From an uncultured virus (IMG/VR IMGVR_UViG_3300015171_000006) (lineage: Duplodnaviria; Heunggongvirae; Uroviricota; Caudoviricetes), in IMG/VR virus record IMGVR_UViG_3300015171_000006, positions 1 through 55,093 of that record: DNA of 55,093 nt. One strand, written 5' to 3'. Position 1 is the first letter of the stretch; each line of letters begins with the position of its first letter. The notes under the pieces were generated by a model. That model worked only from the letters and a program-made list of their open reading frames with translations, was not told where the DNA came from and made no database searches. A program made the translations under genes and the position numbers. Of the stretch, positions 1 through 55,093 are shown one piece after another.

Positions 1-4
1 AACG

Positions 5-79
5 TTCGCTGTTATGATTTTTTAAGTAGCAAATAATTATAAAGGCAGATGGAACTACTTAAAAAATCATAACAGCGAA
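5..79. repeat. Perfect 25-bp inverted repeat (spacer hairpin), copy A
   Basis: TTCGCTGTTATGATTTTTTAAGTAG (5-29) / CTACTTAAAAAATCATAACAGCGAA (55-79), 25-nt loop; identical to 52327-52401. Confidence 0.95.
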
Positions 80-93
80 GCGGAAATTCAAGC

Positions 94-122
94 CTCACTT
101 ATAAGAAACTCTTATATTAAAT
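94..122 (+). other. dif-like XerC/XerD site 1 (7-bp central region)
   Basis: CTCACTTATAA-GAAACTC-TTATATTAAAT; right arm is 10/11 identical to the XerD box TTATGTTAAAT. Confidence 0.75.
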
Positions 123-211
123 TGGCGCTAACACAGCCATGAGTAAAAGCGTCAGGAAAATTGTAAAGACAGCCAACGCCACTTGTTTTTATCGGAATTT
201 GATATTTTATT

Positions 212-1486: not shown

Positions 1487-1505
1487 GCTTATGCTAAGGT
1501 AATAA

Positions 1506-2027: not shown

Positions 2028-2028
2028 A

Positions 2029-2355: not shown

Positions 2356-2364
2356 TACTTTATA

Positions 2365-3155: not shown

Positions 3156-3156
3156 A

Positions 3157-3792
3157 TTATTTCTTTTTTACAATTATCAATTCTTTATAAAAATGGATAA
3201 ATTCAAATTTATTATTAACCACATCTTCAGTTTTTAAATGCTCATAATTTAGCTGATGCGTTAATTGCTGAAAGTAATGCATGGAAGTATTTGCAGATAA
3301 GTCTTTGCTTCCTTCATATTCAGTATCCTCAAAATAGCTTGTATGCACATCTTCAATAAAATAAATATCCCCGCTCTGCAGCAGCGGAAATATCATCTCA
3401 AATGTTTTTATGGTTAGGCTGTTGTTGTGGCTGGCATCATCAATAATAATTCTTTTATCAGATCCTTTTTCCCTTTCCAATATTGAAGCAAATAAATTTT
3501 CATCTGCTTGAGAACCTTGCCAAAATTCAGTCCGGTCATTAACTATATTTATTTTATCATAAAGATCAATGCCAATTATTTTACCCTGCACAAAATAATC
3601 ATACCACATACGCAGGCTTTCGCCGCCCCTGTCTGCATAATGATAACCGCCAACTCCAATCTCAACTAAAGAAATTTTATTATTTCTTAATGGTTCAAGG
3701 TATAGCTCATAAGTTTTGCAATAATCATGGTAAGTGCTGCTTTTATCAGTACCGTATTTTAAAGCAAGGTTATCTAAGCTTTCCATGGCCAT
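3157..3792 (-). CDS. Class I SAM-dependent methyltransferase (sugar O-methyltransferase-like)
   Basis: KYGTDK...H.Y...YE, LVEIGVG, IIGIDL, IIIDDASH, GDIYFIEDV. Confidence 0.85.
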   Translation of the reverse strand: MAMESLDNLALKYGTDKSSTYHDYCKTYELYLEPLRNNKISLVEIGVGGYHYADRGGESLRMWYDYFVQGKIIGIDLYDKINIVNDRTEFWQGSQADENLFASILEREKGSDKRIIIDDASHNNSLTIKTFEMIFPLLQSGDIYFIEDVHTSYFEDTEYEGSKDLSANTSMHYFQQLTHQLNYEHLKTEDVVNNKFEFIHFYKELIIVKKK

Positions 3793-5270: not shown

Positions 5271-5479
5271 GCTGGTACTTTAATTTTATTCTTTTTATTA
5301 ATCACATTCGGTTTATTACCCTGTAAATGTCTTAAAAGAATTGCTTCAGTTTTCGCCGGGTCAGCATCAGCACTTTCAGCTACATTGCATCTTATAAGAT
5401 AGCTTCCCATACTTTCATCAAAATCAACTTCTTCTCCCGGCTTCCAGTTAATGTGTTTTTTTAAAAACCTTATCAGCAT
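5267..5479 (-). CDS. Small protein downstream of major capsid gene
   Basis: 70-aa ORF overlapping the next start; IRFLK...KPGEEV pattern typical of post-capsid small proteins. Confidence 0.7.
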   Translation of the reverse strand: MLIRFLKKHINWKPGEEVDFDESMGSYLIRCNVAESADADPAKTEAILLRHLQGNKPNVINKKNKIKVPA

Positions 5480-5495
5480 AAATATTTATTAAAAT

Positions 5496-5527
5496 AAAAC
5501 CCCTGTTATATTTCAAACAAGGGTTTT
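5496..5527 (-). terminator. Terminator-like hairpin after major capsid gene
   Basis: AAAACCCCTGTT...AACAAGGGTTTT stem with a T-rich tract on the minus strand. Confidence 0.6.
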
Positions 5528-5545
5528 ACATAAGATTAAAAAATA

Positions 5546-6997: not shown

Positions 6998-6998
6998 T

Positions 6999-7922
6999 TT
7001 AATTTTTAATTAAAGATTTATTAAATGTTGTTAGTACACTTAACAACTCTTTTTCTTCAATGCTGGCAAGCGGCTTAGGTGGGTTATCCCCGGCGTAAGT
7101 GTCTGCGGTATCATATTCAGAGATCAGTTGTTTAGTATTGTCAATTTCTAAAAGAATAGATTTTATACATTCATCCGATGCAGTTGTGTTGCGGCAAAAG
7201 TTTTCAAGCGCTGCTGCATGGGCCTTAATTTGTTTAAGTTCTTTAGTATTATAGCGAAGCTGCGAGCGTAGCTCCCCCATCACATCTGCCCGCCTGCTTA
7301 TGTTCCACGTAACCCATGAGTACAGATCGCTTGCTTCATCAATAGAACCGCTTAAATTAACCAGCATCTGTAAAATATCCTGGTCGCTGGCAATAATTAA
7401 CTTCAAGGTATTTTGCTCATTATCGCTAAGGCTTTTTACCTCCGACAGATCAAAAAATGATTTAACTACATTCCTTACTCCCGCTTTTGGATGTGCTGGC
7501 ATTTTAGTAAGTACGCTTGTTTCTATATGCCTCACCTCTTTAAGTTCGCGAACCTTGCGGGCCTTAACTTCAATAATATTACTGCGCTCTGTTACATAAC
7601 CAAAGGATGCTTTTTTAATCACACCTTCATCCATCATCAGCAAAACATCGTTACCCAGGGTATGAGTGCCAAGCCATGCTTTTGTGTAAGCCTGCTTATC
7701 ATCTTCATACACATCAGTCACTTTGCCGGGCGCCTGTTCATCATTATGATTTAGGTAAAAAGAAATGTCAGATTTATTTTCATTCCAGCTTTTTGTAAAC
7801 ATGCCTTTGCGGGAAATATCACCAACGCGGTCAACAGAATCATAAACAGCATGGGCTATAATGGCCGTACGGCTGTTTTTATCCAAATCCTTAAGCTCAA
7901 AATTAATTGTCTTTCTTTCCAC
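6999..7922 (-). CDS. HK97-type prohead protease with C-terminal extension
   Basis: VYDSVDRVGDI..KGMF, LNHN, ASFGY, ELKEV..IETSVL..PAHPKA. Confidence 0.9.
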   Translation of the reverse strand: MERKTINFELKDLDKNSRTAIIAHAVYDSVDRVGDISRKGMFTKSWNENKSDISFYLNHNDEQAPGKVTDVYEDDKQAYTKAWLGTHTLGNDVLLMMDEGVIKKASFGYVTERSNIIEVKARKVRELKEVRHIETSVLTKMPAHPKAGVRNVVKSFFDLSEVKSLSDNEQNTLKLIIASDQDILQMLVNLSGSIDEASDLYSWVTWNISRRADVMGELRSQLRYNTKELKQIKAHAAALENFCRNTTASDECIKSILLEIDNTKQLISEYDTADTYAGDNPPKPLASIEEKELLSVLTTFNKSLIKN

Positions 7923-8086
7923 GCTTTTTAATTTTTACAGTTTTGGCATTCAAGATTTTAACCTCATAACCGTTTTTCACCTTAGTTTTCATACTTAACA
8001 TTAAATTCTATGTAAAATCTGTATCGAATTGAATAACAGAATCAAAAATATATTTTATCTTAGCAAGCGAATATTACTTTATACAA

Positions 8087-8539
8087 ATGCTGCCAACTGT
8101 AAAAGAAGGTGTTCGGGAATTAATTTTTAATTACTTCGGTTATGATGTGCTTGTTAACCACAGGGTGCAGCATGATCTACTAAAAAATATAATAGAAACA
8201 TTTACCTACGCTTACAACCGGCATCAAAACATTGAGGATATAGAAAAGGATTTAGAGTGGACTGAAATATGGGAGTTGAGGCAAAGGAGAATTAATTTAA
8301 AAGAAAGCAATTACAAGCCGTTTCCTATAAGGCTTGGTGATCTTAAGCCAATATTGCAAATGGAAGCCGCCGAGCATAAAAAAACCTTGCACGGCCATAT
8401 ACTTAACCTGCTTATGGAGCGGCAAAAAATACAAAAGAATTATATTGACGTTTACTGTGTACCTCGCTTAAGCAAGATGTACAGATATAAAAGATTACAC
8501 AATAGAGTAATTGTTAACCAGTTAGAATTATTTAATTAA
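8087..8539 (+). CDS. Hypothetical protein with putative ribbon-helix-helix DNA-binding segment
   Basis: KPFPIRLGDLKPILQMEAAEHKKTLHGHILNLLMER resembles an Arc/MetJ-type RHH; opposite strand to head genes. Confidence 0.55.
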   Translation: MLPTVKEGVRELIFNYFGYDVLVNHRVQHDLLKNIIETFTYAYNRHQNIEDIEKDLEWTEIWELRQRRINLKESNYKPFPIRLGDLKPILQMEAAEHKKTLHGHILNLLMERQKIQKNYIDVYCVPRLSKMYRYKRLHNRVIVNQLELFN

Positions 8540-8590
8540 AGTAAAATAATAAGTAAATTCAGTTTATCTTTAATCCCTAAATTTAAAATT

Positions 8591-8683
8591 ATGCAAGACA
8601 AAGAAACAGTAACAACAGAAACTACTACCACGGAAAAGCCTGCAACGGAAACAACTACCGTTACCGAGAAACCTGTAGGGTAG
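8591..8683 (+). CDS. 30-aa Thr-rich peptide (not in ORF track)
   Basis: MQDKETVTTETTTTEKPATETTTVTEKPVG*; AT-rich leader; internal repeat kept at protein level; terminator follows. Confidence 0.5.
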   Translation: MQDKETVTTETTTTEKPATETTTVTEKPVG

Positions 8684-8700
8684 AATTAAATTTTTTTGTG

Positions 8701-8738
8701 TAATACCCGCATCTGTAATGATTGCGGGTTTTTTATTA
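8701..8738. terminator. Bidirectional terminator-like hairpin between convergent genes
   Basis: ACCCGCA...TGCGGGT then TTTTT, flanked by TAATA/TATTA. Confidence 0.6.
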
Positions 8739-9542
8739 CTGTGGTAAAAATAATTGTGTACAGCGGCAATTTATAACCTCTTTTGCCGGCACTGGTAACT
8801 CACCTTTGCCGCCCCTATCTCCAGGATGCAAAGGTGAGTTACCAGGATCTATAAAAAAATCATTCATGCCAACAATTTGCCCCGATACATTTCTGTGGTC
8901 GTTTCTTACACGGCTATCACTGGCGGCAAGCCATTCTTTTTTAAGATCAAGACCTGTATCTTTAGCAACAAACAAGGCCCCGGCATTGGCAGCCGTTACC
9001 GTTTCTGTACGTGCAATCAACCTTGCTCTTATCCTACTGAGCTCAGTATTTTCAAGCTGCTTAATAATATCGTCTATGCCTTCACCCTTGGCATAAGCAT
9101 CCGTAAAAACCTGCATAATCAAATCTTTGGTTGTTTGGGTAATGCCTTCACTTGTAGTTAAAATATCATAGCTAAAATACTGCTCAATTTGCTGGCGCAT
9201 TGCTTCACTAAAACCCATGGCCAGTCGGTGCTTGGTTTCAATACCAACAACGTAACTTTTTACACTTCGCTTCATCTTTACAAGATCTGCTCTTACCTTG
9301 GCGCCATAAACTGTGCCTGCATCAATATAGAGAGGCTTAATTGCTGCTGATATTGTTGTGGCTGATATTCTGTTAATTGCTTCGTGCTCTGTTGAGCCTT
9401 TGTGCAAATACTGAAGCACAACATCGTACTGTGATCTTATTGCTTTGAAGATAGAAGGCGCAAAGTATTTCTCCCGGCTTTTTTGAAAACGGTGAAAGCG
9501 TTGTAAGTGGCTATGTTTTTCTTCCTGTTGCACGATATTCAT
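8736..9542 (-). CDS. Minor head protein (SPP1 gp7/Mu gpF family)
   Basis: RARLIARTET, KEWLAASDSRVR.DH, HPGD, EVINCRC. Confidence 0.92.
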   Translation of the reverse strand: MNIVQQEEKHSHLQRFHRFQKSREKYFAPSIFKAIRSQYDVVLQYLHKGSTEHEAINRISATTISAAIKPLYIDAGTVYGAKVRADLVKMKRSVKSYVVGIETKHRLAMGFSEAMRQQIEQYFSYDILTTSEGITQTTKDLIMQVFTDAYAKGEGIDDIIKQLENTELSRIRARLIARTETVTAANAGALFVAKDTGLDLKKEWLAASDSRVRNDHRNVSGQIVGMNDFFIDPGNSPLHPGDRGGKGELPVPAKEVINCRCTQLFLPQ

Positions 9543-9717
9543 TTATTAGTAATACATCCCCGGAATCTAAATCAGTTTCATGTATTTCTGCATAATCGTA
9601 AAGCTCATGCCAATTACTTCCTACTCTTGCCCTATCGGCTAAGTCTAATGATGAATAAACGCCTAAAAAATCAGAGGATTGGTAATCATGCCCGACTGAT
9701 AAAATATAAACTTTCAT
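9511..9717 (-). CDS. Hypothetical protein
   Basis: 68-aa ORF overlapping neighbours in the operon. Confidence 0.6.
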   Translation of the reverse strand: MKVYILSVGHDYQSSDFLGVYSSLDLADRARVGSNWHELYDYAEIHETDLDSGDVLLINEYRATGRKT

Positions 9718-9944
9718 GTTACTGATTTTGCGTTAAATTGATTTGATAATTGAGATTCCACATACTGATTAATCTTTCTTAGCAGCCATGCCCGCCTGGC
9801 AATATCGTTTGCCTTATCAGCTGCACATCCGGTTCTTAAAGGTATGGCCTGGTTAACGATCTTCACTAAATCCTCTTTCATAACAATCTTTACAAAATTT
9901 AAATTTAGTTTCAATTGGTTCATAACTGAACGGGCCGAATACAA
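9714..9944 (-). CDS. Hypothetical protein (start probably at MKEDLVK)
   Basis: Co-oriented; stop overlaps the next start. Confidence 0.5.
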   Translation of the reverse strand: MYSARSVMNQLKLNLNFVKIVMKEDLVKIVNQAIPLRTGCAADKANDIARRAWLLRKINQYVESQLSNQFNAKSVT

Positions 9945-10047
9945 ACATCTGAAACATCTTACTTGTTATTAATTCTTTGCACTCAAAACAAACACTGCCA
10001 TCCGGAGGCATCTCTGCAAAGCCTTCACTGTTTATCTCTGCTTCCAT
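9853..10047 (-). CDS. Small Zn-finger-like protein
   Basis: CFEC...CKDC pairs; directly after portal. Confidence 0.6.
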   Translation of the reverse strand: MEAEINSEGFAEMPPDGSVCFECKELITSKMFQMFVFGPFSYEPIETKFKFCKDCYERGFSEDR

Positions 10048-10061
10048 AGCAAAGCAAGATA

Positions 10062-11546
10062 CTAATTACCATTCGGAGTTGCAACAGGCAAGGGCGGCAT
10101 ATTTTCAAAATCATCCAATGGCGTATATCCTGTAGGTATCCATGGCAAATCAAATTTAGGATCATCATATCGCTCCCAATCCATCATCTCACGTTTTTCA
10201 TTTGGCGTTAAATGCCACATTATAGCCAGCGATGCAGCCTTCCTTTCCAAATCCTGATGCAGCTCCGATATACCGCTTATATCAGCATCTATGTATCTTG
10301 ATTTTCCGTCTCCCTTCACTCTTACCGGCTCACCGTCTTGCCCTGTAATTAAAACGCCATCTTTAAAGTCAGGCAATAAATGTTTAACCAATGCATCTCT
10401 TACCCTGAAAATATTCGGCAAAATAGTATTGGTATAAAGCCGTTTGGTATGTGTAAGCACGTTACTTTCCGTGCTTGCGCTGTCGCTGTTAAATAAAATA
10501 TCACTTACGCCCCACACATTGCACAGCTTTTTAAAATCCACATTGCCAAGCTCCAGCACTCCCAAATCTTTAAGGTGGCTACCAAGCTGTATAGCACCCA
10601 TTTCACCATTTGCAAAAAAAGGAGCGCCGGCATTATCAGGGTTACTTATAAAGCGGTGAAAATTTTGTTTTCGCTTTCCAATTATATCAACTCTTTCTTC
10701 ATCTACACCCAGCCCTTTTTCGTAAACAATAGTTTCCACACCGCCGTTCTGCAATCTTGCCACAGAAGTATTCATATTACTATCCAGCCTGGTAAGCCTT
10801 TTTTGAAGAACTTTTAAAGGAGAAAGCCCGCGAAGCTCGCTGCCCATTATATTCATTTCCGGGTTAAAATATTTAATATGAATAACATCTTCAGCAGGTA
10901 TATTTTCCATAATTATCTTGCCTTCATATCTATAATCATAGGCAACAATGGTTCTGGGTAAATCATTGCTTATTTTTAAAATAACACCTTGCGGATATAG
11001 TAAATGCAACTGTATAGGCAAGCCAATGTTTACGCCATCTTCCGGCCTTTCTTTTAAAATAAAAGCTTCGCCATGCAAAAAAAGATTTGAATAAACACCT
11101 TCAAAAAATTCATACTTACTCATATCCTGGTGCGGATTTTCTATAAGAGCAGCCACCGGATCATCTTCCGGCAAATCTGTTAATGCTTTTGTTTGAAGTG
11201 ATTTGTATTTTATAACATTGTTATAACCCTTAACCTCTTTTTTCAGGTTCGTAAAAGCTTTTTTATCTGGAGTAGATAGATAACCGTAAAGAGGAACCAG
11301 CGCCGCAGTAGTTGCCAGCAGGCGAATGATGGAATAAATATCATCTGTGTTTAAATACCTGTCATTGGCTGTTTTAATACTCCATGCGGGGTAAATAGCT
11401 ATGTTACTATTTAAATTGGCGGCAATGTTAGCCATTGCAATATTTTCAAACCCGGTAGTGGCTGCAGCAAATCTTTTTAATTCCGTTACTTCCTGCGATA
11501 GCTGCTTAATAGCCTTATCCTTTTTGCCAAAATCAAATAAACCCAT
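10062..11546 (-). CDS. Portal protein, HK97 family
   Basis: LIENPHQDMSKYEF, LHGEAFI, VIHIKYFNP, GLSPL, LTPNEKRE. Confidence 0.93.
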   Translation of the reverse strand: MGLFDFGKKDKAIKQLSQEVTELKRFAAATTGFENIAMANIAANLNSNIAIYPAWSIKTANDRYLNTDDIYSIIRLLATTAALVPLYGYLSTPDKKAFTNLKKEVKGYNNVIKYKSLQTKALTDLPEDDPVAALIENPHQDMSKYEFFEGVYSNLFLHGEAFILKERPEDGVNIGLPIQLHLLYPQGVILKISNDLPRTIVAYDYRYEGKIIMENIPAEDVIHIKYFNPEMNIMGSELRGLSPLKVLQKRLTRLDSNMNTSVARLQNGGVETIVYEKGLGVDEERVDIIGKRKQNFHRFISNPDNAGAPFFANGEMGAIQLGSHLKDLGVLELGNVDFKKLCNVWGVSDILFNSDSASTESNVLTHTKRLYTNTILPNIFRVRDALVKHLLPDFKDGVLITGQDGEPVRVKGDGKSRYIDADISGISELHQDLERKAASLAIMWHLTPNEKREMMDWERYDDPKFDLPWIPTGYTPLDDFENMPPLPVATPNGN

Positions 11547-11560
11547 TTCAAGATTTTAGC

Positions 11561-11608
11561 TAAAGATAAATTTAAGCAAATAGCTGTATTACAGCATTAG
11601 TATAAAGT
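11561..11608 (-). promoter_or_regulatory. Putative late promoter motif upstream of portal
   Basis: Minus strand ACTTTATAC-N23-CTTAAATTTATCTTTA; same motif and spacing at 47289-47336 and 51224-51271. Confidence 0.7.
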
Positions 11609-11641
11609 TTAATCAACAATTCTTACATTTGTGATGCAGGC

Positions 11642-11935
11642 TGATTTTTTAAGTAGTTCCATCTGCCTTTATAATTATTTGCTACTTAAAAAATCATAAC
11701 AGCGAACGTTCTTTATTTATCAGAGTATGAGAGCCTTGATTATAAGATAATATTATGTTACTCAGGTTAGCCGTTTAGCCGCAATTCAATTTTATATTTT
11801 TGCGTAAGCTTTTAAAATTGAGATTGCACGCTGGCTGCTGTAGCGTTGAAGGCTGGCTTAAAAAGTAAAATAAAAAATGTCTTTGAGAGCGAAGCAAGAT
11901 TGCTGGTTTTTGAGCAATCTTTCAATATCATACGT
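11642..11935 (-). repeat. Inverted partial copy of the module-end/spacer element
   Basis: 11642-11773 and 11851-11935 are reverse-complement matches to about 52260-52391 and 52095-52179; the middle differs. Confidence 0.92.
11735..11763 (+). other. dif-like XerC/XerD site 3
   Basis: CTTGATTATAA-GATAATA-TTATGTTACTC. Confidence 0.72.
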
Positions 11936-12038
11936 GGGTAAAAAACCCTTACCTTTATAAAAATAAAAAACCCATTACGCCAATAATGGGGGATTGCACA
12001 TACTATCAATATGAACATATCAAAGTTAATACTTTTTT

Positions 12039-12254
12039 ATGTTCAAATATTTTATTGTATTTACTTCTCTTATGTTTATTTTATATTCTTGCGAACACAA
12101 GAAAATACATCATCAGTCCATTTTAAAGCCTGACCCCTATATTACCAAGATGTACTTTCAGATGGATAGTTTAATAAAATCTGATGCAAAAAGCGGCACG
12201 TATGTAATAGAAGGAGACACTATTACTTTTTTAAAGTATCAATTGGGTGACTAA
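12039..12254 (+). CDS. Small putative lipoprotein (module C cargo)
   Basis: Signal peptide with lipobox-like LYS-C. Confidence 0.65.
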   Translation: MFKYFIVFTSLMFILYSCEHKKIHHQSILKPDPYITKMYFQMDSLIKSDAKSGTYVIEGDTITFLKYQLGD

Positions 12255-12972
12255 GCGGCAAAAGACTTATCCCTAATTCTGGCAACTCCGTTCCACTTAC
12301 GACTAAGTTCATACTAAAGTGAAATGTGTCTTTGTATTCTTTACCGTTTAAATCAAGACAATTTATTGTAAAAAGAGTTTTATTTGTAATTAAATCCGGT
12401 ACTACATAATAAGGGAAACTAAAACTTGCTGTACAAGCAATTGGTTCTAATGGATTCAATCTATATATTTTCTCCATATCAATAAGATTTGAATAACTGG
12501 CTTTAACGTTTATTGCTGTTGTATCCATATTCGGGGGAAGCAAAGAGGCTTTGCCACTCACTATTCCATATTTGGGCGTTTCTACAGTTAAGCCGTATGG
12601 GCCATTAATAAATAATGGCTTCTCTCCATTATTTTCTAAGATTCCTGAAATGATTACAACTTGGCCACTTTGCTTTTTTATTGGGTCTCTATATTGCCCT
12701 ACATACATTGCTCTTGGATGGTATTTAAAAGAAGGTCTGTCTGTAAAATATGACACGACTTTGAATATTCCTGGAATACCACCTATAGCGCCGATTAATA
12801 AGATTATGAGTGAAGAATAAATATATGAAGGCTTTTGGGAAATTTCCTTAATAGATAACTTTCTATCCCTTATGTTTTTAGGTTTTACAACATTTTTTTC
12901 ACTTATAGGAAGCTTTGGTTGCGGGAGAGGAAATTTTGGCTTTTGCTTTTTTGTAAATTTTGGCTTGCCCAT
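12223..12972 (-). CDS. Membrane-anchored hypothetical protein (module C cargo)
   Basis: Basic N-terminus, one TM segment, beta-rich remainder. Confidence 0.75.
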   Translation of the reverse strand: MGKPKFTKKQKPKFPLPQPKLPISEKNVVKPKNIRDRKLSIKEISQKPSYIYSSLIILLIGAIGGIPGIFKVVSYFTDRPSFKYHPRAMYVGQYRDPIKKQSGQVVIISGILENNGEKPLFINGPYGLTVETPKYGIVSGKASLLPPNMDTTAINVKASYSNLIDMEKIYRLNPLEPIACTASFSFPYYVVPDLITNKTLFTINCLDLNGKEYKDTFHFSMNLVVSGTELPELGISLLPLSHPIDTLKK

Positions 12973-13009
12973 TCGCTAAAATAAACATTCTTCGAAACAA
13001 ACCTCAATC

Positions 13010-13117
13010 AAAAACCAGTGGCGCTGGCTTTTTTATTTTACTTTTTCAGAGGCTGTGCAGTGCCTGTTTAACATAATGGTTTCTTATAAGTGAGGCTTGA
13101 ATTTCCGCTTCGCTGTT
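13010..13117 (-). repeat. Inverted copy of the module-start element
   Basis: Reverse complement matches about 52393-52500 with few substitutions. Confidence 0.92.
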
Positions 13118-13330
13118 GGGCATTTGTGCGTCGGCTGAATTAAGTGAGGGGCGGTCCAACGTGAGGAATGGCTCGCCGTACAAATTAAACCCAAGATCAC
13201 ACAGTTTATTTAAGTGGAGGTAATACCATTTACCACTTCCATATAATTTGTACGAAAGCTCACACATTATCTTATGAAACCACCATTTTACTGGCTTTTT
13301 AAACTGCTTATTAACCTTGCTACAAGCCAT
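13046..13330 (-). CDS. Hypothetical protein; C-terminus reads through the dif-like element
   Basis: Starts just after the terL stop; the last ~24 codons are repeat sequence, so the gene is possibly truncated. Confidence 0.45.
   Translation of the reverse strand: MACSKVNKQFKKPVKWWFHKIMCELSYKLYGSGKWYYLHLNKLCDLGFNLYGEPFLTLDRPSLNSADAQMPNSEAEIQASLIRNHYVKQALHSL
13066..13094 (-). other. dif-like XerC/XerD site 4
   Basis: Minus strand CTCACTTATAA-GAAACCA-TTATGTTAAAC. Confidence 0.8.
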
Positions 13331-13345
13331 ATATATATATTGGGT

Positions 13346-14884
13346 TTAATATTCTGCATCAGCATAAACTTTTTTAGGCACCAGCGTAAATATTTCACGC
13401 ATCATAAACATATCCATTAAATCAGGACTGTCACCATTTAACTTGGTTTTCATTTCATCTTTCTTTATAACCCGCAGCTTACCGTCACTATCAGGCTTTG
13501 CCCGCTTTATGGCTTTGCGCTCATATAAAAATCGTTGCCTCACAGTCATTTTAGTATCATACATCATATTTGCCACACGCTCATTAATTTTCATTTCACC
13601 ACGGTTAACTCTGTTACCGCTCCTGTAATAACATTGAGCCTTAAGGTGCTCATAATTTTCTGGCAATAACTTTCGTGTCTTGGGATCATATTTTGGGTTA
13701 GAATAATCTGGCAAAGCCGGGCTTCCATTATTAAACTCTTTGGCGCCAACAATATACCCGTCAATAAACTGGCCCACACCATCATTATCAAAAGCAATAT
13801 TGCTGTTTTGTGTTTTATGCTTTTTTGCCATATTCTCAATGCCGGCAATCACTTCATTACCCTTGCTCTTATCCATAATCAGCATATCATCCAGTTCAAA
13901 GCCGCTCCAATGCCCAACTATAAATTTATTACTTCCTTTCATAGCAATATCAGCCGTAATATAATTGCCATCATTTTTTACATCATACTTATTTTCAAAC
14001 ATGCCTATAAATTTATAATAATCATAAATATCAATGTCAGATAATATTACCTTCCAATTTCCTTCAAATAACTGAGCCTTGGTTTCTGCATCCTGCGCCA
14101 TCAGGTTTCCCAGGTACGAAGGGTTTACTTTTAAAAGCTCTTTATTATCATAAATACTACCTGATATAAAGGTTATAGACTTTACAAATTCCCTTGCATC
14201 TATGCCAGATTTTTGTACGGCATCTTCAATTAAATACCATCCTTTTTCAATCACCTCCTCATAACTATCCCCCCAAATATAATTCTCGCCATCTACAAGC
14301 ATATATCTTATCACGCCATCCCTTTCCGGTATAGGGAAGCCGGTATCTGCATCAATCCACCAATTAATTAAATCATAAACCCAGCTTTCAGGGTCAGGGT
14401 TGCATGTTGCCCTGCAGTAAGGCCGAACGCCTGATACGGATCTGTTCCTGGTAAGCAGGTAAAAAAACATTTTTTTTGAAAAATGGGTCAGCTCATCAAA
14501 ACCTATAAATGGTATCTGAGCTCCCTGCCAGTCAAATATATTTTTCTCATACTCTAAGTGGGAAAATTTAAGCTTGCATCCCGATTTAAAATACCATTCT
14601 AAGGAGCTTTCCTTAGGAACGGCGCCAATGCCAGGGTAAATCGTCATGGAAGTATCCCACAATCCACCCTCATTTCTTATCTGTGGAGATGTACGCCTGA
14701 ATATAACACCGCCAAAAGCAGGGTTATGAACGTCACGCAGCGGATCAAGTAAAAGAGTGAATGTTTTACCTACGCCTGCAGCAGCGCCGCCAATTATTAT
14801 ATCAGCAGCATTACTAAGCGCCTTGGTTTGATAACCCGGCTGCGGCTGTATCGTTAGCGTAGGTTTCTTTATTAGCTCTGCCAT
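13346..14884 (-). CDS. terL: Terminase large subunit
   Basis: Q motif PQPGYQ, Walker A GAAAGVGKT, Walker B FIGFDE, ATCNP, nuclease ITADIA and SPDLMD. Confidence 0.95.
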   Translation of the reverse strand: MAELIKKPTLTIQPQPGYQTKALSNAADIIIGGAAAGVGKTFTLLLDPLRDVHNPAFGGVIFRRTSPQIRNEGGLWDTSMTIYPGIGAVPKESSLEWYFKSGCKLKFSHLEYEKNIFDWQGAQIPFIGFDELTHFSKKMFFYLLTRNRSVSGVRPYCRATCNPDPESWVYDLINWWIDADTGFPIPERDGVIRYMLVDGENYIWGDSYEEVIEKGWYLIEDAVQKSGIDAREFVKSITFISGSIYDNKELLKVNPSYLGNLMAQDAETKAQLFEGNWKVILSDIDIYDYYKFIGMFENKYDVKNDGNYITADIAMKGSNKFIVGHWSGFELDDMLIMDKSKGNEVIAGIENMAKKHKTQNSNIAFDNDGVGQFIDGYIVGAKEFNNGSPALPDYSNPKYDPKTRKLLPENYEHLKAQCYYRSGNRVNRGEMKINERVANMMYDTKMTVRQRFLYERKAIKRAKPDSDGKLRVIKKDEMKTKLNGDSPDLMDMFMMREIFTLVPKKVYADAEY

Positions 14885-32607: not shown

Positions 32608-33678
32608 ATGGATAAATTAAACCTTACTCCTACTATTAATCTTCAGCGCCGGGACAAAGACGGCAAGTGTGCTGTGAGAATAAGATCCACCATAAAACGT
32701 AAGGTTACCTACTATCCAACCAGTATAAGTGTTTTTCCTGATCAATTCAAAAACAGGGAAATTGTAAAGCATCCCAATAAAATAATTTTCAACACGGCTA
32801 TCAGAAATAAGATGTATGAAATTGAGCGGGATTATCTTGAAGGAAAACTAACCGGCAAATCTAAAAATACTGATTTTTATGCCTTCTCTCAAAAAAAGAT
32901 AACACAGCAAAAAGGTAAAGATTCTGTGGGTACCTGGAAGCACAAAAAAAGTTATCTGAATAAACTGCAGGAGTTTAAACCAGTTCTGCATTTCTCAGAT
33001 GTTACTCCTTCCTTTATGCTTGATCTTGAAAATTATTGCAGGGCAAAAGGCAACAAGCCAACAACTGTATGGAGCACGGTAAAATTTATAAAAACAATGA
33101 TCAATGCTGCGCTCAATGATGAAGTGATAAGCAGCAACCCGCTGAAAGGTTATAAAGGAAAAGCTTATGTCAATCCTGAGAGACAATATTTAACTGATGA
33201 AGAAATTGAGAAGATTGAAAACTTTGCAGCAACTTCCAAAAATAAAACGCTTGTAAAGGTGTCTTATTGGTTCTTGTTTGGAGTTTTTAGCGGTTTGAGA
33301 TACGCGGATATTAAAAACTTTGATAAGAAAAAAATTATAGACGGCCGCATAATTTTAAGGACTGGCAAATCTGATATTGATGTAAGTATTAAAATTCATC
33401 CCAAACTAAAAAATGTTTTGGATAAAATAAGTCCGGATGTTTTTACCAATCAAAAGATGAATGATTACTTGAAGCATATTGCTATTGCTTGCGGTATTGA
33501 AAAGAATTTAACGATGCATATCGGTCGTCATACACATGCCGTTTATTTCCTCAATCATGGCGGCTCCATGGAAACACTTAGCAAACTGCTTGGCCACTCA
33601 AAAATAGGCACGACATTAATTTATGGCCGGATAACCAATCAGAGGATAGATAGTGAAGTGGACAGAGTTTGGAGTTAA
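32608..33678 (+). CDS. Lysogeny integrase (tyrosine recombinase with arm-binding and SAM-like domains)
   Basis: N-terminal arm-binding pattern; SGLRYAD, K, HIGRHT, LLGHS, Y. Confidence 0.93.
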   Translation: MDKLNLTPTINLQRRDKDGKCAVRIRSTIKRKVTYYPTSISVFPDQFKNREIVKHPNKIIFNTAIRNKMYEIERDYLEGKLTGKSKNTDFYAFSQKKITQQKGKDSVGTWKHKKSYLNKLQEFKPVLHFSDVTPSFMLDLENYCRAKGNKPTTVWSTVKFIKTMINAALNDEVISSNPLKGYKGKAYVNPERQYLTDEEIEKIENFAATSKNKTLVKVSYWFLFGVFSGLRYADIKNFDKKKIIDGRIILRTGKSDIDVSIKIHPKLKNVLDKISPDVFTNQKMNDYLKHIAIACGIEKNLTMHIGRHTHAVYFLNHGGSMETLSKLLGHSKIGTTLIYGRITNQRIDSEVDRVWS

Positions 33679-50184: not shown

Positions 50185-50526
50185 CTACTTCTTTACTGCT
50201 TTGCTTTTTTTTTCTTTTTCTGGCTTTTGAGTGATTATAGATTGATACATCTGCGTTCCTGTAAACACTGTTGAAACTTCTTTAATAATTTCAGCAGCAT
50301 TGGGCTTTATGTAAATTTCATCTACCCAGTCACAAACATCCTCAAAAGTATAATCCGGGTGTTCTTCTTTTACAAAACTGTTACCTCTTAAACCGCCATA
50401 AAATAAGGCATACACATTTTGAATATCAGAATCAGGATTGCTCTTTGTTCTTATTATTTCAAGAGCAAGCTGGTTAAATTTTAACCCACGTTCTTTGCCG
50501 CCTAATTCTATTTTAATATAACTCAT
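50185..50526 (-). CDS. Tail assembly chaperone (gpG-like)
   Basis: IELGGKERGLKFN..AL; follows the major tail gene. Confidence 0.8.
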   Translation of the reverse strand: MSYIKIELGGKERGLKFNQLALEIIRTKSNPDSDIQNVYALFYGGLRGNSFVKEEHPDYTFEDVCDWVDEIYIKPNAAEIIKEVSTVFTGTQMYQSIITQKPEKEKKSKAVKK

Positions 50527-51206
50527 TAAGGTATAATTGTAGCTACAGGAATTGAGAAGCCGGAGCCAGTACCGCCAATATTAGCAGCCAAAGCAGTAAG
50601 TGTATTACCCACCACATAACCAGATCCACCGTCATCCAAAATACATGCTGTTACTGAACCGCCTGATACGGTTATATCTGCAGTTGCGCCTAAACCCGCC
50701 CCGCCTGTTAATGGAACATCTGTGTAAACACCGTTAGTATATAAAGTACCTGCTGTAATGCTTCCAAGAGTAGCAATTGCACCGCTGGCCTCTACTTTTG
50801 TAATGTCACCAACTACCTGGAACTGGCCCTGAAAAGTAGAGTTTCCGGCGCCGTATGTATCTGAAAGAGAAGTTAAAAACCCTTTGCCTGAATAAGTAAT
50901 ATCATCATCCTGCGGCAAGGCTACCCCTACTTTCCATCCAAATATTGCTTTAACAGCCCAAAGATCATGCAGGTTAGCGCCGCTTATTCGTCCGCTGGCA
51001 GGATCCCACATTTGCACACCATCAAAGGTCACATCAGCTTTATTATCACCCGGTGCAGATTTTAAACCGCACTGCGTAGCCGTTTCAATACTCGTTGTTG
51101 TTCGCTGAATCGATTTTGTGGTTAAACAAACAAGTGTGCTGTAGTTAGTGCCACCCGTGGGGTCAATGAATAAAAATATATCATTGCCATTTATTTCTCT
51201 TTCCAT
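50526..51206 (-). CDS. Major tail (tube) protein with Gly-rich C-terminal decoration domain
   Basis: INGNDIFL...VCLT......IETATQC...YSGKGFLTSLS; C-terminal GG.G.GATADITV.GG.V. Confidence 0.85.
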   Translation of the reverse strand: MEREINGNDIFLFIDPTGGTNYSTLVCLTTKSIQRTTTSIETATQCGLKSAPGDNKADVTFDGVQMWDPASGRISGANLHDLWAVKAIFGWKVGVALPQDDDITYSGKGFLTSLSDTYGAGNSTFQGQFQVVGDITKVEASGAIATLGSITAGTLYTNGVYTDVPLTGGAGLGATADITVSGGSVTACILDDGGSGYVVGNTLTALAANIGGTGSGFSIPVATIIP

Positions 51207-51272: not shown

Positions 51273-51707
51273 TTACCGGTGAAAGATGCTATGCTGAAAA
51301 GTTAGCACCCGATCAACATACTCCCTGGTATTATTAATGTTGTAATTCTGCGTAAAGTCGCCAGAAAGTTTTGTTGTTACACATTGAAGATTATCAGTTA
51401 ATTCAAGAGCAGTTTGTCTGTCAGGATAAATGGCCATTAATACAAGCCCGGCAATAGCATCAGCCGCCGCACCGTCATTATATTTCTCTTTAAATGTGTG
51501 AATCGTTACCCGCATAGATGTTGATGTATCTGCTTTGTATTGAGAAGAAGTATCATTATTAGTAATGCCGCCAAATACAATATAATTTTCATCCTCAATA
51601 TTATCAGGCGCTTTTTGATAAAAAACAGGGATAGGCACATCATTATATTTCAGCACCGATAAGGCAGAATTGTAAGCCACTCTTAAAGGATAATTTACAT
51701 CTCTCAT
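51273..51707 (-). CDS. Tail terminator (DUF3168-like)
   Basis: LR.AY..AL....VPVF..P......YIV pattern; upstream of the major tail gene. Confidence 0.78.
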   Translation of the reverse strand: MRDVNYPLRVAYNSALSVLKYNDVPIPVFYQKAPDNIEDENYIVFGGITNNDTSSQYKADTSTSMRVTIHTFKEKYNDGAAADAIAGLVLMAIYPDRQTALELTDNLQCVTTKLSGDFTQNYNINNTREYVDRVLTFQHSIFHR

Positions 51708-52269
51708 GTAAAGTAAAAGTAAAATCTTAATGTTTTTTGTTCAATAAGTTTATACTTAAAAACTATTTGGACCTTCCACTTAATTCAGCCCGGCCAACAG
51801 GCTATTCAAAAAAAACAAATATGCGACTAATTATATAACTTGCAAATTATAAGTACTTGCCCAAGCGCTTAATTTGAAGGTAAAAAAAGTCTTTTAGTAG
51901 ATAACAAAAATACTACTAAATGACAAAGTTTTGCCTAATTGGGCTAATATTTTTTTCTTGCAATATTTACCGAAAAATCCCATCTAAAATGTCAACTGTT
52001 CATCCCAAGCATGAATACAGAATTGGTGATACAATTATTATAAAAAATAAGAAATACTGTGTAATAGATGTGAGAATGTAAAGGGATTTTATCTACGTAT
52101 GATATTGAAAGATTGCTCAAAAACCAGCAATCTTGCTTCGCTCTCAAAGACATTTTTTATTTTACTTTTTAAGCCAGCCGGCCAAGCTATGCAGCTCCTA
52201 TGAAAGCTGATTTTTTGCCGCATACGCTAAATTAAAAAATCACTTTCCAGCCAGTCTCTCGGCTAACCT

Positions 52270-52298
52270 GAGTAACATAATATTATCTTATAATCAAG
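52270..52298 (-). other. dif-like XerC/XerD site 5
   Basis: Minus strand CTTGATTATAA-GATAATA-TTATGTTACTC, identical to site 3. Confidence 0.72.
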
Positions 52299-52415
52299 GC
52301 TCTCATACTCTGATAAATAAAGAACGTTCGCTGTTATGATTTTTTAAGTAGCAAATAATTATAAAGGCAGATGGAACTACTTAAAAAATCATAACAGCGA
52401 AGCGGAAATTCAAGC

Positions 52416-52444
52416 CTCACTTATAAGAAACCATTATGTTAAAC
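52416..52444 (+). other. dif-like XerC/XerD site 6
   Basis: CTCACTTATAA-GAAACCA-TTATGTTAAAC, identical to site 4. Confidence 0.8.
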
Positions 52445-52517
52445 AGGCACTACACAGCCCCCAAAAAAGTAAAATAAAAAAGCCCGCGCCACTGGTTTTT
52501 ATTATGTAGAATGTATA

Positions 52518-53183
52518 TTGTGGAGAATGGGAATTTATAAACTATACTTGTTTCTTTTACTGCTTTCACCTATAGCCTCTTTTCCTCAAATAAAAAGAAT
52601 AAATAATATTAACGTGAGCCTTAAAAACCTTATATCAGAAACATCCAAAATTATGGATATTTTGCACATAAGTAAAAGGGTCAATTTAAAAAAAGATTCT
52701 CCATCCATAAACGTTCTTATAGATAGTACCGTCCTTCCATTTAATGCGTTTTTTGGCGGATTACATAAAAATGAAAGAGGTGTTATAACTCCATCAGGCA
52801 ACCATGCTTTAAGGTACTACAGATATCCTGCTATAAGGATGAATCCGCTTTTGCATTTAATAGTTTCAAAGAAGAAAGATACTACTGCTTTTGTCAGGCT
52901 TAAGGCAATATCAATTTTTGTTCACGAATTGGTTCATTATTTACAAGCTACTTGGTGGGTACACAACATTACTGTAACCTCGTATGATCAAATGGAATCT
53001 TATATATCTCAACCTGATGAATTTGAGGCTTATGGAGCAGAAGCATATTTCCTTTTAAAATATTACAATGAAAAATTATTAAGTAGTATAATGTACTCCA
53101 AAAACACACAAGAAACAAAAATGAAATTATTAATCAAATCATACTACTCAACCGTATATCCGTGGAGAGCTAAAATTTTTTAA
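52518..53183 (+). CDS. Secreted HExxH zincin-like protein (module B cargo)
   Basis: Hydrophobic N-terminus; FVHELVHYLQ and downstream Y..QPDEFEAY. Confidence 0.72.
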   Translation: MWRMGIYKLYLFLLLLSPIASFPQIKRINNINVSLKNLISETSKIMDILHISKRVNLKKDSPSINVLIDSTVLPFNAFFGGLHKNERGVITPSGNHALRYYRYPAIRMNPLLHLIVSKKKDTTAFVRLKAISIFVHELVHYLQATWWVHNITVTSYDQMESYISQPDEFEAYGAEAYFLLKYYNEKLLSSIMYSKNTQETKMKLLIKSYYSTVYPWRAKIF

Positions 53184-53535
53184 TCTTTACTTATTATACT
53201 ATCAGGATAAATACAAATATTATACATAACGGTATCCATTCTGTTTATATTAATGGTATCGCATTTTACTAAATGTAAAGGCCTATGACACTTCTTTGAA
53301 GTATTGCAGCTTGTTAAAGTAAAAAACACAAACCACCGGAGGGAAAAAAATTTTCATTTGTTCAATGAATTAATATGAGTAATTTTGTTACTCATTTAAA
53401 CCATTAAACCTTATGATATTAATATAATTGCAGGCTGCTAACGCAGTCTGTTTGTGTTTTATAAAGGTAAGAAAATAATTTTTTCCCATATCCTGTTTTT
53501 TTGTACTTTGTACAGGATTTCAAAACTAAACAATC

Positions 53536-53883
53536 ATGGCTAAGATTCTAATAGTTGATGATGAGCAAGACCTTTTATATGTTGTAAAAATCCTTTTAAC
53601 AAAAGAAGGTTTTGAAGTTATAACACATTCCACTTATTCAAATGTTGAAGAAATTGTACTAAGGCATTCTCCTGATTTAATTCTTTTGGATGGAGTGATT
53701 CACGGAGGTTCAGGTCGGGAAATTTGTAAAGAACTCAAAAAAAATTACCCTATACCAGTTGTATTGTTTTCAGCACATAGCCCAATTTCAAAAACCTATA
53801 AAGATTACGATGCAGACGGTTTTATTCAAAAGCCTTTTGATATACCGGACTTTATAAATACTATTAAGTCATACCTCAATTAA
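53536..53883 (+). CDS. Single-domain response regulator (CheY-like, module B cargo)
   Basis: KILIVDDE, PDLILLD, GREICKELK, PVVLFSA, ADGFIQKPF. Confidence 0.93.
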   Translation: MAKILIVDDEQDLLYVVKILLTKEGFEVITHSTYSNVEEIVLRHSPDLILLDGVIHGGSGREICKELKKNYPIPVVLFSAHSPISKTYKDYDADGFIQKPFDIPDFINTIKSYLN

Positions 53884-54151
53884 TAGTTTTAGGTTATCGG
53901 TTTAAGTTGTCTACCTTACTGCTGGTTTTCACAAGTATAGCGAATTTTTAAGGGAGGTGAATCTTTATTCTGCCTCCCAATTTTTTTTCACTCCCCCTTG
54001 GTATAATGCCTTGATTACTCACCATATTTTAATTTAATAGAATTATTTATTACCTTTCTTTTCTCATAGACCAGTTAGTTTGGTATATAACCGAGGGCGA
54101 ATTTTTATTCTGCCCTCCTGTTTTTATGTTGTAAGATTGGTATATTAGCGA

Positions 54152-54811
54152 ATGGAAAGAAGGAAGTTTATAATTACCGTGAAGCAAAGGATTATTCTTG
54201 GACTTGTAGGCCTTTTCTTCACTTTTGCTATTGCATATATTAAAGGATGCTTTAATAAAACGGAAGCTAAAAAAATGCCAGTAGTCAATTCTCATATTAG
54301 TAATTATCAATCGAGCATCGGTCAACAATATAATGCGGGTAGAGATATAGTATTTTCTTCGCCAACCTCAAAGGTTGATACAAACACCACTAATCCATTG
54401 TTAACCAAAGTGCATACAGGGCAAAAAAACCAAAGAAAATTTAACAGCACTAAAAAAGATACTCTAATTGTTAACAATGGTTTTATAAATAATGGAGGAG
54501 TTGGCAATACGTATAACCAAACAATGAACCCTCCTTCGGAACAAAGGCACTTAAGCCCACTGGATAAAATTTACCTTGATACTGCCTTTTCTCCTAACTT
54601 AAAATTTTTCTTATTAGATGTTTACAATTTTGACAAGGAAAGTTTGAACTTATCAAATGAAATAAGTAATTACTTGGAATCAAAAAACTATACACCAATG
54701 ATGCGGCAACCAGAAAATATTCTTGGCGGAGTTCCGAAGGATAGCTTAGGCAAAATTAATATTATAAAATATGATGGGAGTTTTAAGATAATTATTTATC
54801 CATTGAAATAA
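54152..54811 (+). CDS. Membrane-anchored hypothetical protein (module B cargo)
   Basis: Basic N-terminus, one TM segment, low-complexity linker, globular C-terminus. Confidence 0.72.
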   Translation: MERRKFIITVKQRIILGLVGLFFTFAIAYIKGCFNKTEAKKMPVVNSHISNYQSSIGQQYNAGRDIVFSSPTSKVDTNTTNPLLTKVHTGQKNQRKFNSTKKDTLIVNNGFINNGGVGNTYNQTMNPPSEQRHLSPLDKIYLDTAFSPNLKFFLLDVYNFDKESLNLSNEISNYLESKNYTPMMRQPENILGGVPKDSLGKINIIKYDGSFKIIIYPLK

Positions 54812-54932
54812 TTTTTACCCAAGGATTAATCCTATTACAATGCCAATTCTAATTGCTTTCACTATAAGTCTATAAGGGATACCAAATAACAATTTTAATT
54901 AACGCAGTCAGTTTTAGAACGGTAAATTTACC

Positions 54933-55093
54933 ACGTATGATATTGAAAGATTGCTCAAAAACCAGCAATCTTGCTTCGCTCTAAAAGACATTTTTTATTT
55001 TACTTTTTAAGCCAATCGGCCAAGCTATGCAGCTCCTATGAAAGCTGATTTTTTGCCGCATACGCTAAATTAAAAAATCACTTTCCAGCCAGT
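54933..55093 (+). repeat. Left part of module-junction element (copy A), cut by the contig end
   Basis: Matches 52095-52255. Confidence 0.93.

Follow-up and report, generated by a model that had tools for sequence, protein, structure and literature searches.

The window considered here is a viral contig of 55,093 bp (IMG/VR record IMGVR_UViG_3300015171_000006, positions 1 to 55,093; Caudoviricetes), which comes from soil and whose gene content is that of a temperate tailed phage of a Bacteroidota host. It carries three copies of a junction element in which two inverted sites resembling dif, the chromosomal target of the recombinases XerC and XerD, enclose a long perfect hairpin. Copy A is intact, copy B spans the contig ends, and copy C is permuted. 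Copies A and B have the head-tail joining genes on one side and the tail genes on the other, and they bound a small gene module (module 1); copy C lies between the terminase and portal genes. An initial annotation, made from the letters of the window alone, had proposed that element A folds as single-stranded DNA (ssDNA) into one long hairpin that pairs its two dif-like sites, in the manner of the attP site of the CTX phage (CTX-phi). Together with arrays of related junctions in the chromosomes of Chitinophagaceae, the element points to integron-like gene capture run by housekeeping Xer recombinases.

The junction element and its fold

The location first given for the element (52118-52500) holds, and the span defined by its repetition in copies B and C is slightly wider (Table 1). 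From left to right, element A consists of an L-outer segment, an L-site that runs from XerD arm to XerC arm, the central hairpin, an R-site that runs from XerC arm to XerD arm, and an R-outer segment. All of the nested complementary pairs listed in the initial annotation are present in the sequence, and the minimum-energy ssDNA fold of 52095-52520 includes these nested helices. This fold reaches -70.6 kcal/mol, compared with -37.0 +/- 4.3 kcal/mol in 100 dinucleotide shuffles (z = -7.74; none of the shuffles as good), and the spacer between the two sites (52293-52421) gives z = -8.6 when folded. The fold also forms the paired hybrid Xer site that had been predicted: the letters of the XerD core and of the XerC core pair, TC pairs with GA beside the XerC arm, and the rest of the seven-letter centre is mostly unpaired. 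The L-outer segment opens with a small local hairpin, and a second element in the related chromosomal locus L093 has a 9-bp hairpin of other sequence at the position equivalent to 52109-52134.

The probable dif site of Chitinophagaceae and the arms of the junction sites

A recurrent site first surfaced via a general dif-shaped pattern and was then counted by the exact pattern TATAA-TTWAYR-TTATGTTAAR, which occurs in 83 of 121 Chitinophagaceae genomes, once in 82 of them and twice in the remaining one (G001), versus 0 of 121 for the reversed control. This site is apparently the dif of the Chitinophagaceae chromosome, and in many genomes an operon comprising gyrA and a TPR-protein gene is found no more than a few kb upstream of it (loci L093:27-47, L313-L342).

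The arms of the junction sites are the arms of dif, with the XerC core (C/T)TATAA and the XerD arm TTATGTTAA(A/G), and it is the length of the centre that separates the junction sites (seven letters) from dif (six letters). The description of the sites as dif-like is therefore borne out, both by arms that equal the single-copy dif of the host family and by the cassette arrays that this family forms beside dif. In genome G002, a 27-nt site identical to the window R-site adjoins dif. The idea that the junction site is itself the dif of the family was tried and rejected, as 2 of 81 genomes contained the R pattern and 3 of 81 the L pattern, the reversed control of the R pattern occurring in 5 of 81.

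The two junction sites differ in their centres. Of the 17 junctions with an R partner other than a dif-type site, 15 have an L centre that begins with TAT beside the XerD arm (TAT(A/T) in 14). These are the letters of the dif bottom strand, and the R centres lack them. As for candidate enzymes, XerD scores above the NCBIfam cut-off in all five host genomes, four of which encode a second Xer-like paralogue (254-263 bits), and XerD-like matches number two to five per host genome.

A family of junctions and arrays beside dif

The R-site pattern gave 30 matches in a set with one genome per species, about the level of chance, with several in Chitinophagaceae or Chitinophagia, and 65 loci in metagenomes. 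At 21 of these 95 loci an inverted L-site lies no more than 260 nt upstream, three of the 21 looking spurious. Members of the family come from Chitinophagaceae and from metagenomes of soil. Locus L093, from a Chitinophagaceae genome, carries an element 82% identical over 340 nt, plus a second L end 1.3 kb further on, and loci L112, L110 and L114 share the same architecture with wholly different hairpins. That architecture begins with an L-site (TAACATAA, five to eight and usually six or seven letters, TTATAA), continues with a palindromic spacer around a perfect stem of 8-34 bp, and ends with an R-site (TTATAA, usually seven letters, TTATGTTAAA). When 20 junction spacers were folded, 16 gave z values of -6.5 or lower and two gave values of about -3.7, and for each of these 18 none of 200 shuffles was as good. 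Most stems carry an apical A/T tract of the form (C/T)GATTTTT ... AAAAATC(G/A), the remaining stem sequence being unrelated between members. Each module is bounded by an R-site at one end and an L-site at the other, i.e., by inverted Xer-type sites. Cassettes in arrays measure 0.4-2.4 kb, and some loci hold more than one junction (three in L219, 0.8-1 kb apart; two in L198/L185/L186).

Several of these arrays stand next to dif. In L093, L112, L110/L160, L114 and L204 the order is dif, 550-1000 nt, an L-hairpin-R junction and an optional further module, followed in L093, L112, L114 and L160 by the operon of the TPR-protein gene and gyrA; in L168, which belongs to the sequence family of L204, the junction adjoins the TPR/gyrA operon, the fetched stretch excluding dif. 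In L114 and L226, the genuine dif itself is the R partner of the L-site and hairpin. An unselected test was made on 30 loci chosen by the dif pattern alone, with up to 1.5 kb on each side. A junction with a strong hairpin was present at 5 of the 30, compared with 0 of 29 same-family controls, 0 of 80 related-phage loci and 1 of 24 TPR loci. Among the five positive loci, dif is the partner in three and the junction stands 0.7-1.1 kb off in three, one locus showing both. The window's own copies are located in a phage genome, away from dif. Array neighbours include GNAT, HD, DUF2975 and thioredoxin-like proteins as well as biosynthetic genes, and the 10 array-neighbour proteins scanned contained no recombinase.

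BLAST of the element against 401 genomes of the family gave a single strong match (G001), four others extending over 24-30 nt, while the 1.2-kb element region matched no plasmid and the 3.1-kb element region no named phage. Neither the R-side 19-mer nor a 29-letter L-side pattern occurred in any viral contig, and the viral contigs retrieved by the R-site pattern (3) and by the L-site pattern (28) included none with an L-hairpin-R junction and a convincing hairpin. Two candidates were set aside: a hairpin-arm 19-mer in viral contig L129, where an unrelated integrase gene has its 3' end, was judged to match by chance, the end of the window's integrase gene being unlike it, and the junction at L306 is an A/T-rich false positive. 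The 80 loci of related phages with terminases 53-70% identical contained no copy of the element (best matches 18-28 nt, E at least 0.07) and so gave no exact empty site for copy C. Among 21 TPR loci, a site lies 3' of the TPR gene in L245 only. Literature searches turned up no account of comparable junctions or arrays from Bacteroidota.

Covariation and cognate outer stems

Compensatory changes, whose absence had been named at the outset as evidence against the fold, were found across homologues at three levels. Between window element A and that of L093, 56 consensus pairs can be compared, with four changes on both sides that keep pairing, one change on one side that keeps it, and no broken pair. 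The changes on both sides fall in the CCTG/CAGG stem, in the pair beside the XerC arm and, in two cases, in the hairpin; a third one in the apical hairpin is visible in the sequence, outside the counted pairs.

At the level of the family, the dinucleotide next to the XerC arm is complementary between L-site and R-site in 18 of 22 junctions, compared with a mean of 7.5 and a maximum of 15 in 20,000 trials of partner shuffling, and it falls into four letter classes (GA/TC, GG/CC, CT/AG and TT/AA). The 22 junctions are 29 distinct site pairs minus eight (L100, L170 twice, L195, L197 and L210 three times), plus L112, which was added by hand; L100, L197 and L210 were excluded for poor arms or overlapping parses, and L170 and L195 as not being true junctions. 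The row for L178 was entered with a centre two letters too long, which leaves positions 1-2 unaffected. Counted from the XerC side, centre positions 1 to 6 pair in 21, 19, 2, 9, 2 and 9 of the 22 junctions, respectively, so that the two paired bases and the bubble predicted for element A prove to be a trait of the family.

The third level concerns the outer stems. In 9 of 15 modules, the R-outer and L-outer segments of the same module contain a perfect complement of 18-19 nt, and in one more of 13 nt. By comparison, 210 non-cognate combinations have a median of 8 nt and a 95th centile of 10 nt; two of them reach at least 13 nt (18 nt), these being window modules with identical ends. Pairing energies agree with the lengths of the cognate stems, and a further cognate outer stem of 19-20 nt was recognized by eye in L284. 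The R-outer half starts 8-34 nt past the XerD core, and the L-outer half ends 58-119 nt before the L-site. In the central hairpin and the outer stem alike, structure is kept while sequences are unrelated.

These outer-stem halves flank a junction only with the ends of a cassette joined, or when neighbouring cassettes share them. Accordingly, they match at junction A of the window, where cassette ends are shared, and mismatch at junction B, and the clean nesting seen at junction A reflects the halves that its neighbouring cassettes have in common. Since the halves lie at opposite ends of a cassette, the structure under selection would be the long hairpin of the free cassette, which we regard as the strongest argument for the fold.

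Copies B and C, cassette cargo and phage context

Copies A and B are identical from the L side through the hairpin and the XerC arm up to the fifth letter of the R-site centre, and diverge from there; because the match stops after this letter, the homology switch lies inside the overlap region of a Xer-type site. Junction B contains both ends of the contig (1-192 and 54933-55093), which are separated by a gap of about 67 nt, and it is therefore probable that the contig is circular or represents a permuted genome that was cut at this repeat. Closing such a circle would bring the head genes of the contig start next to the tail genes of its end. The record is probably a complete or nearly complete genome despite an estimated completeness of 60%.

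Copy C reads on the minus strand in the order R half (13117-13010), the gene of a 249-aa protein, and L half (11955-11642). It is opened in the right arm of the hairpin directly after AAAAAATCA, an apical hairpin of 15 bp being left at the 3' end of the cassette, and its flanks form an imperfect direct repeat (TCAGCC...CAAATG). Its place between terminase and portal can be compared with 54 related phages; in 52 of them, the matches to these two genes are no more than 600 nt apart. A second, unrelated phage (L284:8560-9130, a 48-kb IMG/VR contig whose record is also that of metagenome locus L170) has a solitary, permuted cassette, which belongs to the L178 subfamily and directly follows an HNH endonuclease gene in the head cluster, with the portal nearby. 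The break in this cassette is at the foot of the apical hairpin, on the side opposite to that of copy C, and the flanks are inverted repeats. The array of L093 ends inside the left arm of its hairpin.

The 14-mer CACTTAATTCAGCC stands 5' of both cassette regions of the phage, at 51777-51790 upstream of A and at 13150-13137 on the minus strand. AACAG, with which the basal right arm of the hairpin begins, comes 5-15 nt after each occurrence, and the stretch 51790-51850 may be a decayed R end.

As for cargo, the open reading frame at 53536-53883 encodes a receiver-only response regulator of 115 aa (Pfam Response_reg, E 1e-19), and the other cargo proteins (221, 219, 143, 249 and 53 aa) matched no family. 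PADLOC and NCBIfam scans of the module proteins gave nothing besides the receiver domain and a sub-threshold SLATT hint in the 143-aa protein. A shared leader, (G)TATATTAGCGAATGG or a close variant, precedes module genes (52505-52530, 54135-54155, 12990-12970 on the minus strand, and L093 1075-1095) and resembles the Bacteroidota -7 promoter box just 5' of the ATG; cassettes may thus bring their own expression signal. Many L-outer segments also carry the motif AAAACTTA(C/A) about 45-50 nt upstream of the L-site, between outer stem and L-site (L112, L110, L185, L181, L219 and window 1148-1160). The R side has no partner for this motif, which could be a protein-binding site or an outward promoter.

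One sequencing run contains the phage, as contigs only, and these were compared with window 1-14500. The run contigs show alternative paths through the repeats. One contig of 1687 nt, with a depth of 7 compared with about 18 for the phage, shares 79 nt of the R end (13010-13088) with seven differences and then diverges into sequence that contains the leader TATATTAGCG; it is probably another cassette in the same community. In the region of the Mu-F-like gene, a run contig differs from window 8831-8848 by seven substitutions and four single-letter indels in 18 nt, which would be a local variant or an assembly difference.

The structural genes and the integrase identify the phage as temperate, tailed and infecting a Bacteroidota host; by full-length terminase, the closest named phages are those of Bacteroides and Phocaeicola, at 33% identity. 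Its tyrosine integrase scores 62.6 bits against an XerD cut-off of 329.6 bits and 36.5 bits against an integron-integrase cut-off of 265 bits.

Table 1. Parts of the junction copies, modules and phage genes in the window
Feature	Position	Strand	Details
Junction element A, intact	52095..52502	+	L-outer, L-site, hairpin, R-site, R-outer; extent by self-BLAST against B and C
Local 9-bp hairpin opening L-outer	52109..52134	+	AAGATTGCT/AGCAATCTT; loop overlaps AAAAACCAG
Outermost stem	52119-52127 / 52492-52500		AAAAACCAG / CTGGTTTTT
Outer stem, 18 nt, A/T	52153-52170 / 52464-52481	+	L half TTTTTTATTTTACTTTTT; 100% complementary
Stem	52267-52270 / 52444-52447		CCTG / CAGG
Stem	52273-52281 / 52433-52441		TAACATAAT / ATTATGTTA
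L-site, dif-like, XerD-to-XerC	52273..52293	+	TAACATAA-TATTATC-TTATAA
Stem	52286-52293 / 52421-52428		TCTTATAA / TTATAAGA
Stem	52297-52301 / 52413-52417		AGGCT / AGCCT
Central perfect hairpin	52327..52401	+	25-bp stem 52327-52351/52377-52401; 25-nt loop; A/T tract at apex
R-site, dif-like, XerC-to-XerD	52421..52444	+	TTATAA-GAAACCA-TTATGTTAAAC
R-outer	52464..52500	+	stem R half 52464-52481 and CTGGTTTTT 52492-52500, then leader of module 1
Module 1, between junctions A and B	52503..54932	+	open reading frames 52518-53183, 53536-53883, 54152-54811
Junction B, left part	54933..55093	+	98% identical to A 52095-52255; runs off contig end
Junction B, right part	1..192	+	hairpin, R-site 98-122, different R-outer
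Module 2	193..~1196	+	open reading frame 212-643; degenerate L end with hairpin 1048-1072 and L-like site 1175-1196
Module 2 cognate stem, 10 nt	155-164 / 1091-1100
Copy C, R half	13010..13117	-	last 9 letters of hairpin right arm, R-site 13090-13067, R-outer
Module C gene	12223..12972	-	249 aa, no family found
Copy C, L half	11642..11955	-	L-outer, L-site 11760-11740, whole left arm 11706-11682, loop, apical 15 letters of right arm 11656-11642
Portal	10062-11546	-
Terminase large subunit	13346-14884	-
Tyrosine integrase, Bacteroidota type	32608-33678		domains Arm-DNA-bind_5, SAM_5, Phage_integrase
Major tail protein	50526-51206
Tail terminator	51273-51707
Mu-F-like head protein; HK97 gp10-like protein			also encoded in the window

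Proposed mechanism and alternative explanations

The reading that we favour, and hold to be reasonably probable, is that the element is the attachment region of small mobile cassettes exploiting host XerC/XerD dimer resolution, i.e., miniature elements of the IMEX (integrative mobile elements exploiting Xer) type. A cassette unit would comprise, in order, a dif-like R-site, the R-outer segment, one to three genes, the L-outer segment, the inverted dif-like L-site and the perfect hairpin. In the free circle, whether single-stranded or extruded as a cruciform, the two ends would meet and the region would fold into one long hairpin, made up from the outside inwards of the outer stem, the XerD-arm duplex, a centre paired at the two XerC-proximal letters, the XerC-arm duplex and the apical hairpin. 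Such a fold would present XerC/XerD with a duplex-like site whose centre is unpaired, like the folded attP of CTX-phi. The cassette would be inserted by recombination with a double-stranded dif or dif-like site, replication would finish the reaction, and repeated insertion would yield the arrays beside dif in Chitinophagaceae and inside the structural operon of this temperate phage.

The observed layout (C-to-D site, module, D-to-C site, hairpin, C-to-D site) would correspond to an L-hairpin-R circle that recombines via its R-type site with a dif-type site. By analogy, the pairing of the fold beside the XerC arm and its openness towards the XerD arm would match the CTX design for exchange by XerC only. 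On the other hand, the cognate outer stems, together with a six-letter dif centre kept to the left of its module, place the unit boundaries nearer to the XerD side. The initial suggestion of a CTX-attP-like folded site on moving modules is thus supported, and from comparison of the sequences we infer the single-stranded state (as opposed to an extruded cruciform), the use of XerC/XerD, the strand exchanged and activity in the present day.

A number of observations weigh against this proposal. Two of the 20 folded spacers are not significant and two more, folded by script only, are weak, which leaves these members with no convincing hairpin, and in 5 of the 15 modules the cognate stem is 7-10 nt long (10 nt in four, 7 nt in one). 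Most R-site centres share little homology with genuine dif on either side. No single path of strand exchange that was tried (XerC or XerD side, single- or double-stranded) fits all layouts; crossovers at either border would be possible if both strands were exchanged and replication then settled the heteroduplex centre. Copy C, the L284 cassette and the end of the L093 array all break within the hairpin, off any Xer site. Among the module proteins there is no rolling-circle Rep, no phage replication family and no other recognizable source of single strands, and the run contigs over window 1-14500 contained no circle and no empty-site joint, which is evidence neither way. The covariation of the dinucleotide would also be expected if L and R must share overlap letters for recombination of double-stranded DNA (dsDNA), and the shuffle tests overstate independence because the sequences are related. 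The evidence for recombination, circles and ssDNA is, finally, comparative throughout.

A second point of breakage at the foot of the hairpin would explain the permuted solitary cassettes (copy C and L284), which we offer as an idea rather than a finding. Joined to the above, it leads to a wider reading that we put forward tentatively and consider somewhat doubtful as a whole: Chitinophagaceae and their phages would possess an integrase-less counterpart of integrons, in which housekeeping XerC/XerD insert CTX-like folded cassettes at dif and dif-like sites, dif serves as the capture platform and tailed phages as shuttles, and a Xer-independent point of breakage and joining, or of nicking, lies basal to the (C/T)GATTTTT...AAAAATC(G/A) tract, where it could also make single strands.

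Among the alternatives, it has to be considered that the R-sites, and perhaps the L-sites, are ordinary dsDNA Xer sites, as in pdif modules or IMEX of the VGJ or TLC type, and that the palindromes are an accessory architecture, such as a bend or cruciform with a role in controlling synapsis, in blocking excision or in insulating transcription, and never a folded substrate. For the arrays and the breakpoint in the R-site centre, dsDNA recombination of R-type sites in direct repeat would be enough, no way for the cassettes to produce single strands is apparent, and overlap letters common to L and R would mimic covariation. We nevertheless judge this explanation unlikely, as it gives no reason for the cassette-specific outer stems, which meet only with the ends joined, for the perfect hairpin of free sequence with its A/T apex, or for the conserved inverted L-site; furthermore, the distance of about 130 bp between the two sites is too short for tyrosine-recombinase synapsis on duplex DNA. 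An accessory-protein site resembling those of cer and psi, which the initial annotation had raised, finds little support, the stem sequences varying from member to member and being free to do so if pairing is kept. A dedicated tyrosine recombinase, for example the phage integrase or an unlinked host enzyme, might instead serve the sites, the likeness to dif being mimicry or shared ancestry. The phage does encode an integrase of Bacteroidota type, and tyrosine recombinases are many in Bacteroidota, as the two to five XerD-like matches per host genome illustrate. This is quite improbable in view of both arms being equal to the single-copy chromosomal dif, of chromosomal arrays that lie at dif with no recombinase among the scanned neighbours, and of a phage integrase that scores far below the XerD and integron-integrase cut-offs and is encoded 18 kb from the nearest junction.

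Two further explanations carry very little probability. One holds that the structure acts in RNA, as a terminator, insulator, processing site or small RNA between modules, and could draw on the position of the element between convergent or tandem transcription units and on the T run that follows some hairpins of the family (e.g., L110). These T runs are not conserved, however, and a structured RNA, mentioned as a possibility from the start, has little support from Rfam, in which no family reaches threshold and the sole match is a plant microRNA model (29.9 bits versus a gathering score of 74 bits). The outer-stem halves, moreover, flank the genes and lie upstream of the promoter-like leader, so that one transcript would rarely contain both, and two copies of the dif arms would be left without a reason. 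The other, which we rate just as low, takes the palindromes for functionless by-products, for instance of fold-back synthesis or template switching when a cassette is formed; the strikingly perfect and near-constant stems (18-19 nt for the outer stem) could indeed reflect copying rather than selection. It is at odds with the consistent difference between L and R centres, in which L keeps TAT(A/T) beside the XerD arm and R does not, with centre positions 3 and 5, which pair in 2 of 22 junctions, as a decaying perfect palindrome would not do, and with the changes on both sides that keep pairing between diverged copies.

Significance and comparison with known systems

If the folded-cassette reading is true, folded-DNA sites are not peculiar to the filamentous phages of Vibrio and to integrons but would be a solution reached repeatedly for the movement of single genes by a tyrosine recombinase, here with the universal Xer enzymes and without a dedicated integrase. 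The outer stem, which can form in the free cassette only, would then be a simple device for one-way integration, and a tailed phage would have a route to gain, and perhaps trade, accessory genes ("morons") with the host chromosome. The work also names a candidate dif of Chitinophagaceae, with dif as a hot spot for gene capture, and offers a testable Xer/dif system in Bacteroidota, a phylum in which chromosome dimer resolution was described as unstudied as of 2011 (PMC3091885).

The closest parallel in fold is the IMEX CTX-phi of Vibrio cholerae. Both have two close inverted dif-like XerC/XerD sites (here within about 100-150 nt), both fold into a duplex site with unpaired central bases (here by computation), and in neither is a recombinase of its own visible. 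Both also form arrays at the chromosomal dif with an inverted site pair between units, the tandem CTX prophages being separated by inverted attP2/attP1 pairs (PMC3442271, PMC9226527), a likeness that here applies to the chromosomal relatives only. On the other hand, the units described here are cassettes of 0.4-2.4 kb without phage or rolling-circle genes, they have an extra perfect apical hairpin and a cassette-specific outer stem, the junction centre has seven letters compared with six in the host dif, the host belongs to Bacteroidota rather than Vibrio, and the window copies are carried by a tailed dsDNA phage, off dif.

Within Bacteroidota, candidates for Xer-type integration have been reported among microvirus-like proviruses of Bacteroidales, which are flanked by dif-like sites; in some of them a further dif-like site lies in inverted orientation, a feature that the authors compared to CTX (Krupovic and Forterre, 2011; PMC3091885). 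In contrast to the present cassettes, these are whole ssDNA phage genomes with Rep and capsid genes, from gut Bacteroidales, and the pertinent sections of that paper describe no hairpin junction family and no cassette arrays (PMC3091885).

In Acinetobacter, inverted XerC/XerD-type pdif sites bound modules that are thought to be moved by the host Xer enzymes (PMC11705084, PMC7399989, PMC12907356). Modules between inverted Xer sites are thus a feature in common with the cassettes described here, which differ in being found on chromosomes and in a phage, not on plasmids, and in another phylum. Neighbouring pdif modules share one site, whereas a junction here consists of two inverted sites together with a hairpin and outer stems. 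The cer and psi sites have an accessory sequence of about 180 bp beside the XerC arm, which is bound by PepA, ArgR or ArcA; the sequence between the junction sites, by contrast, is free to vary if paired, which argues against a fixed protein site.

In organization, the likeness is to integrons, with which the arrays share small, mostly single-gene cassettes and an imperfect palindromic site kept as structure and not as sequence. The integron recombinase is related to Xer, and its attC site has two pairs of short boxes, extrahelical bases, a variable terminal stem-loop and an unpaired central spacer. The junctions bear a general likeness to this in their paired site, unpaired spacer and variable terminal hairpin; their spacing is dif-like, with six or seven letters between cores of six to eight letters. 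No integron integrase, attI or common promoter was found here (10 array neighbours and the phage integrase), and the cassettes appear to carry their own promoter-like leader. The arms and geometry of the present sites are those of the host dif, and the crossover parts the halves of the outer stem, so that the full hairpin would exist in the free cassette only.

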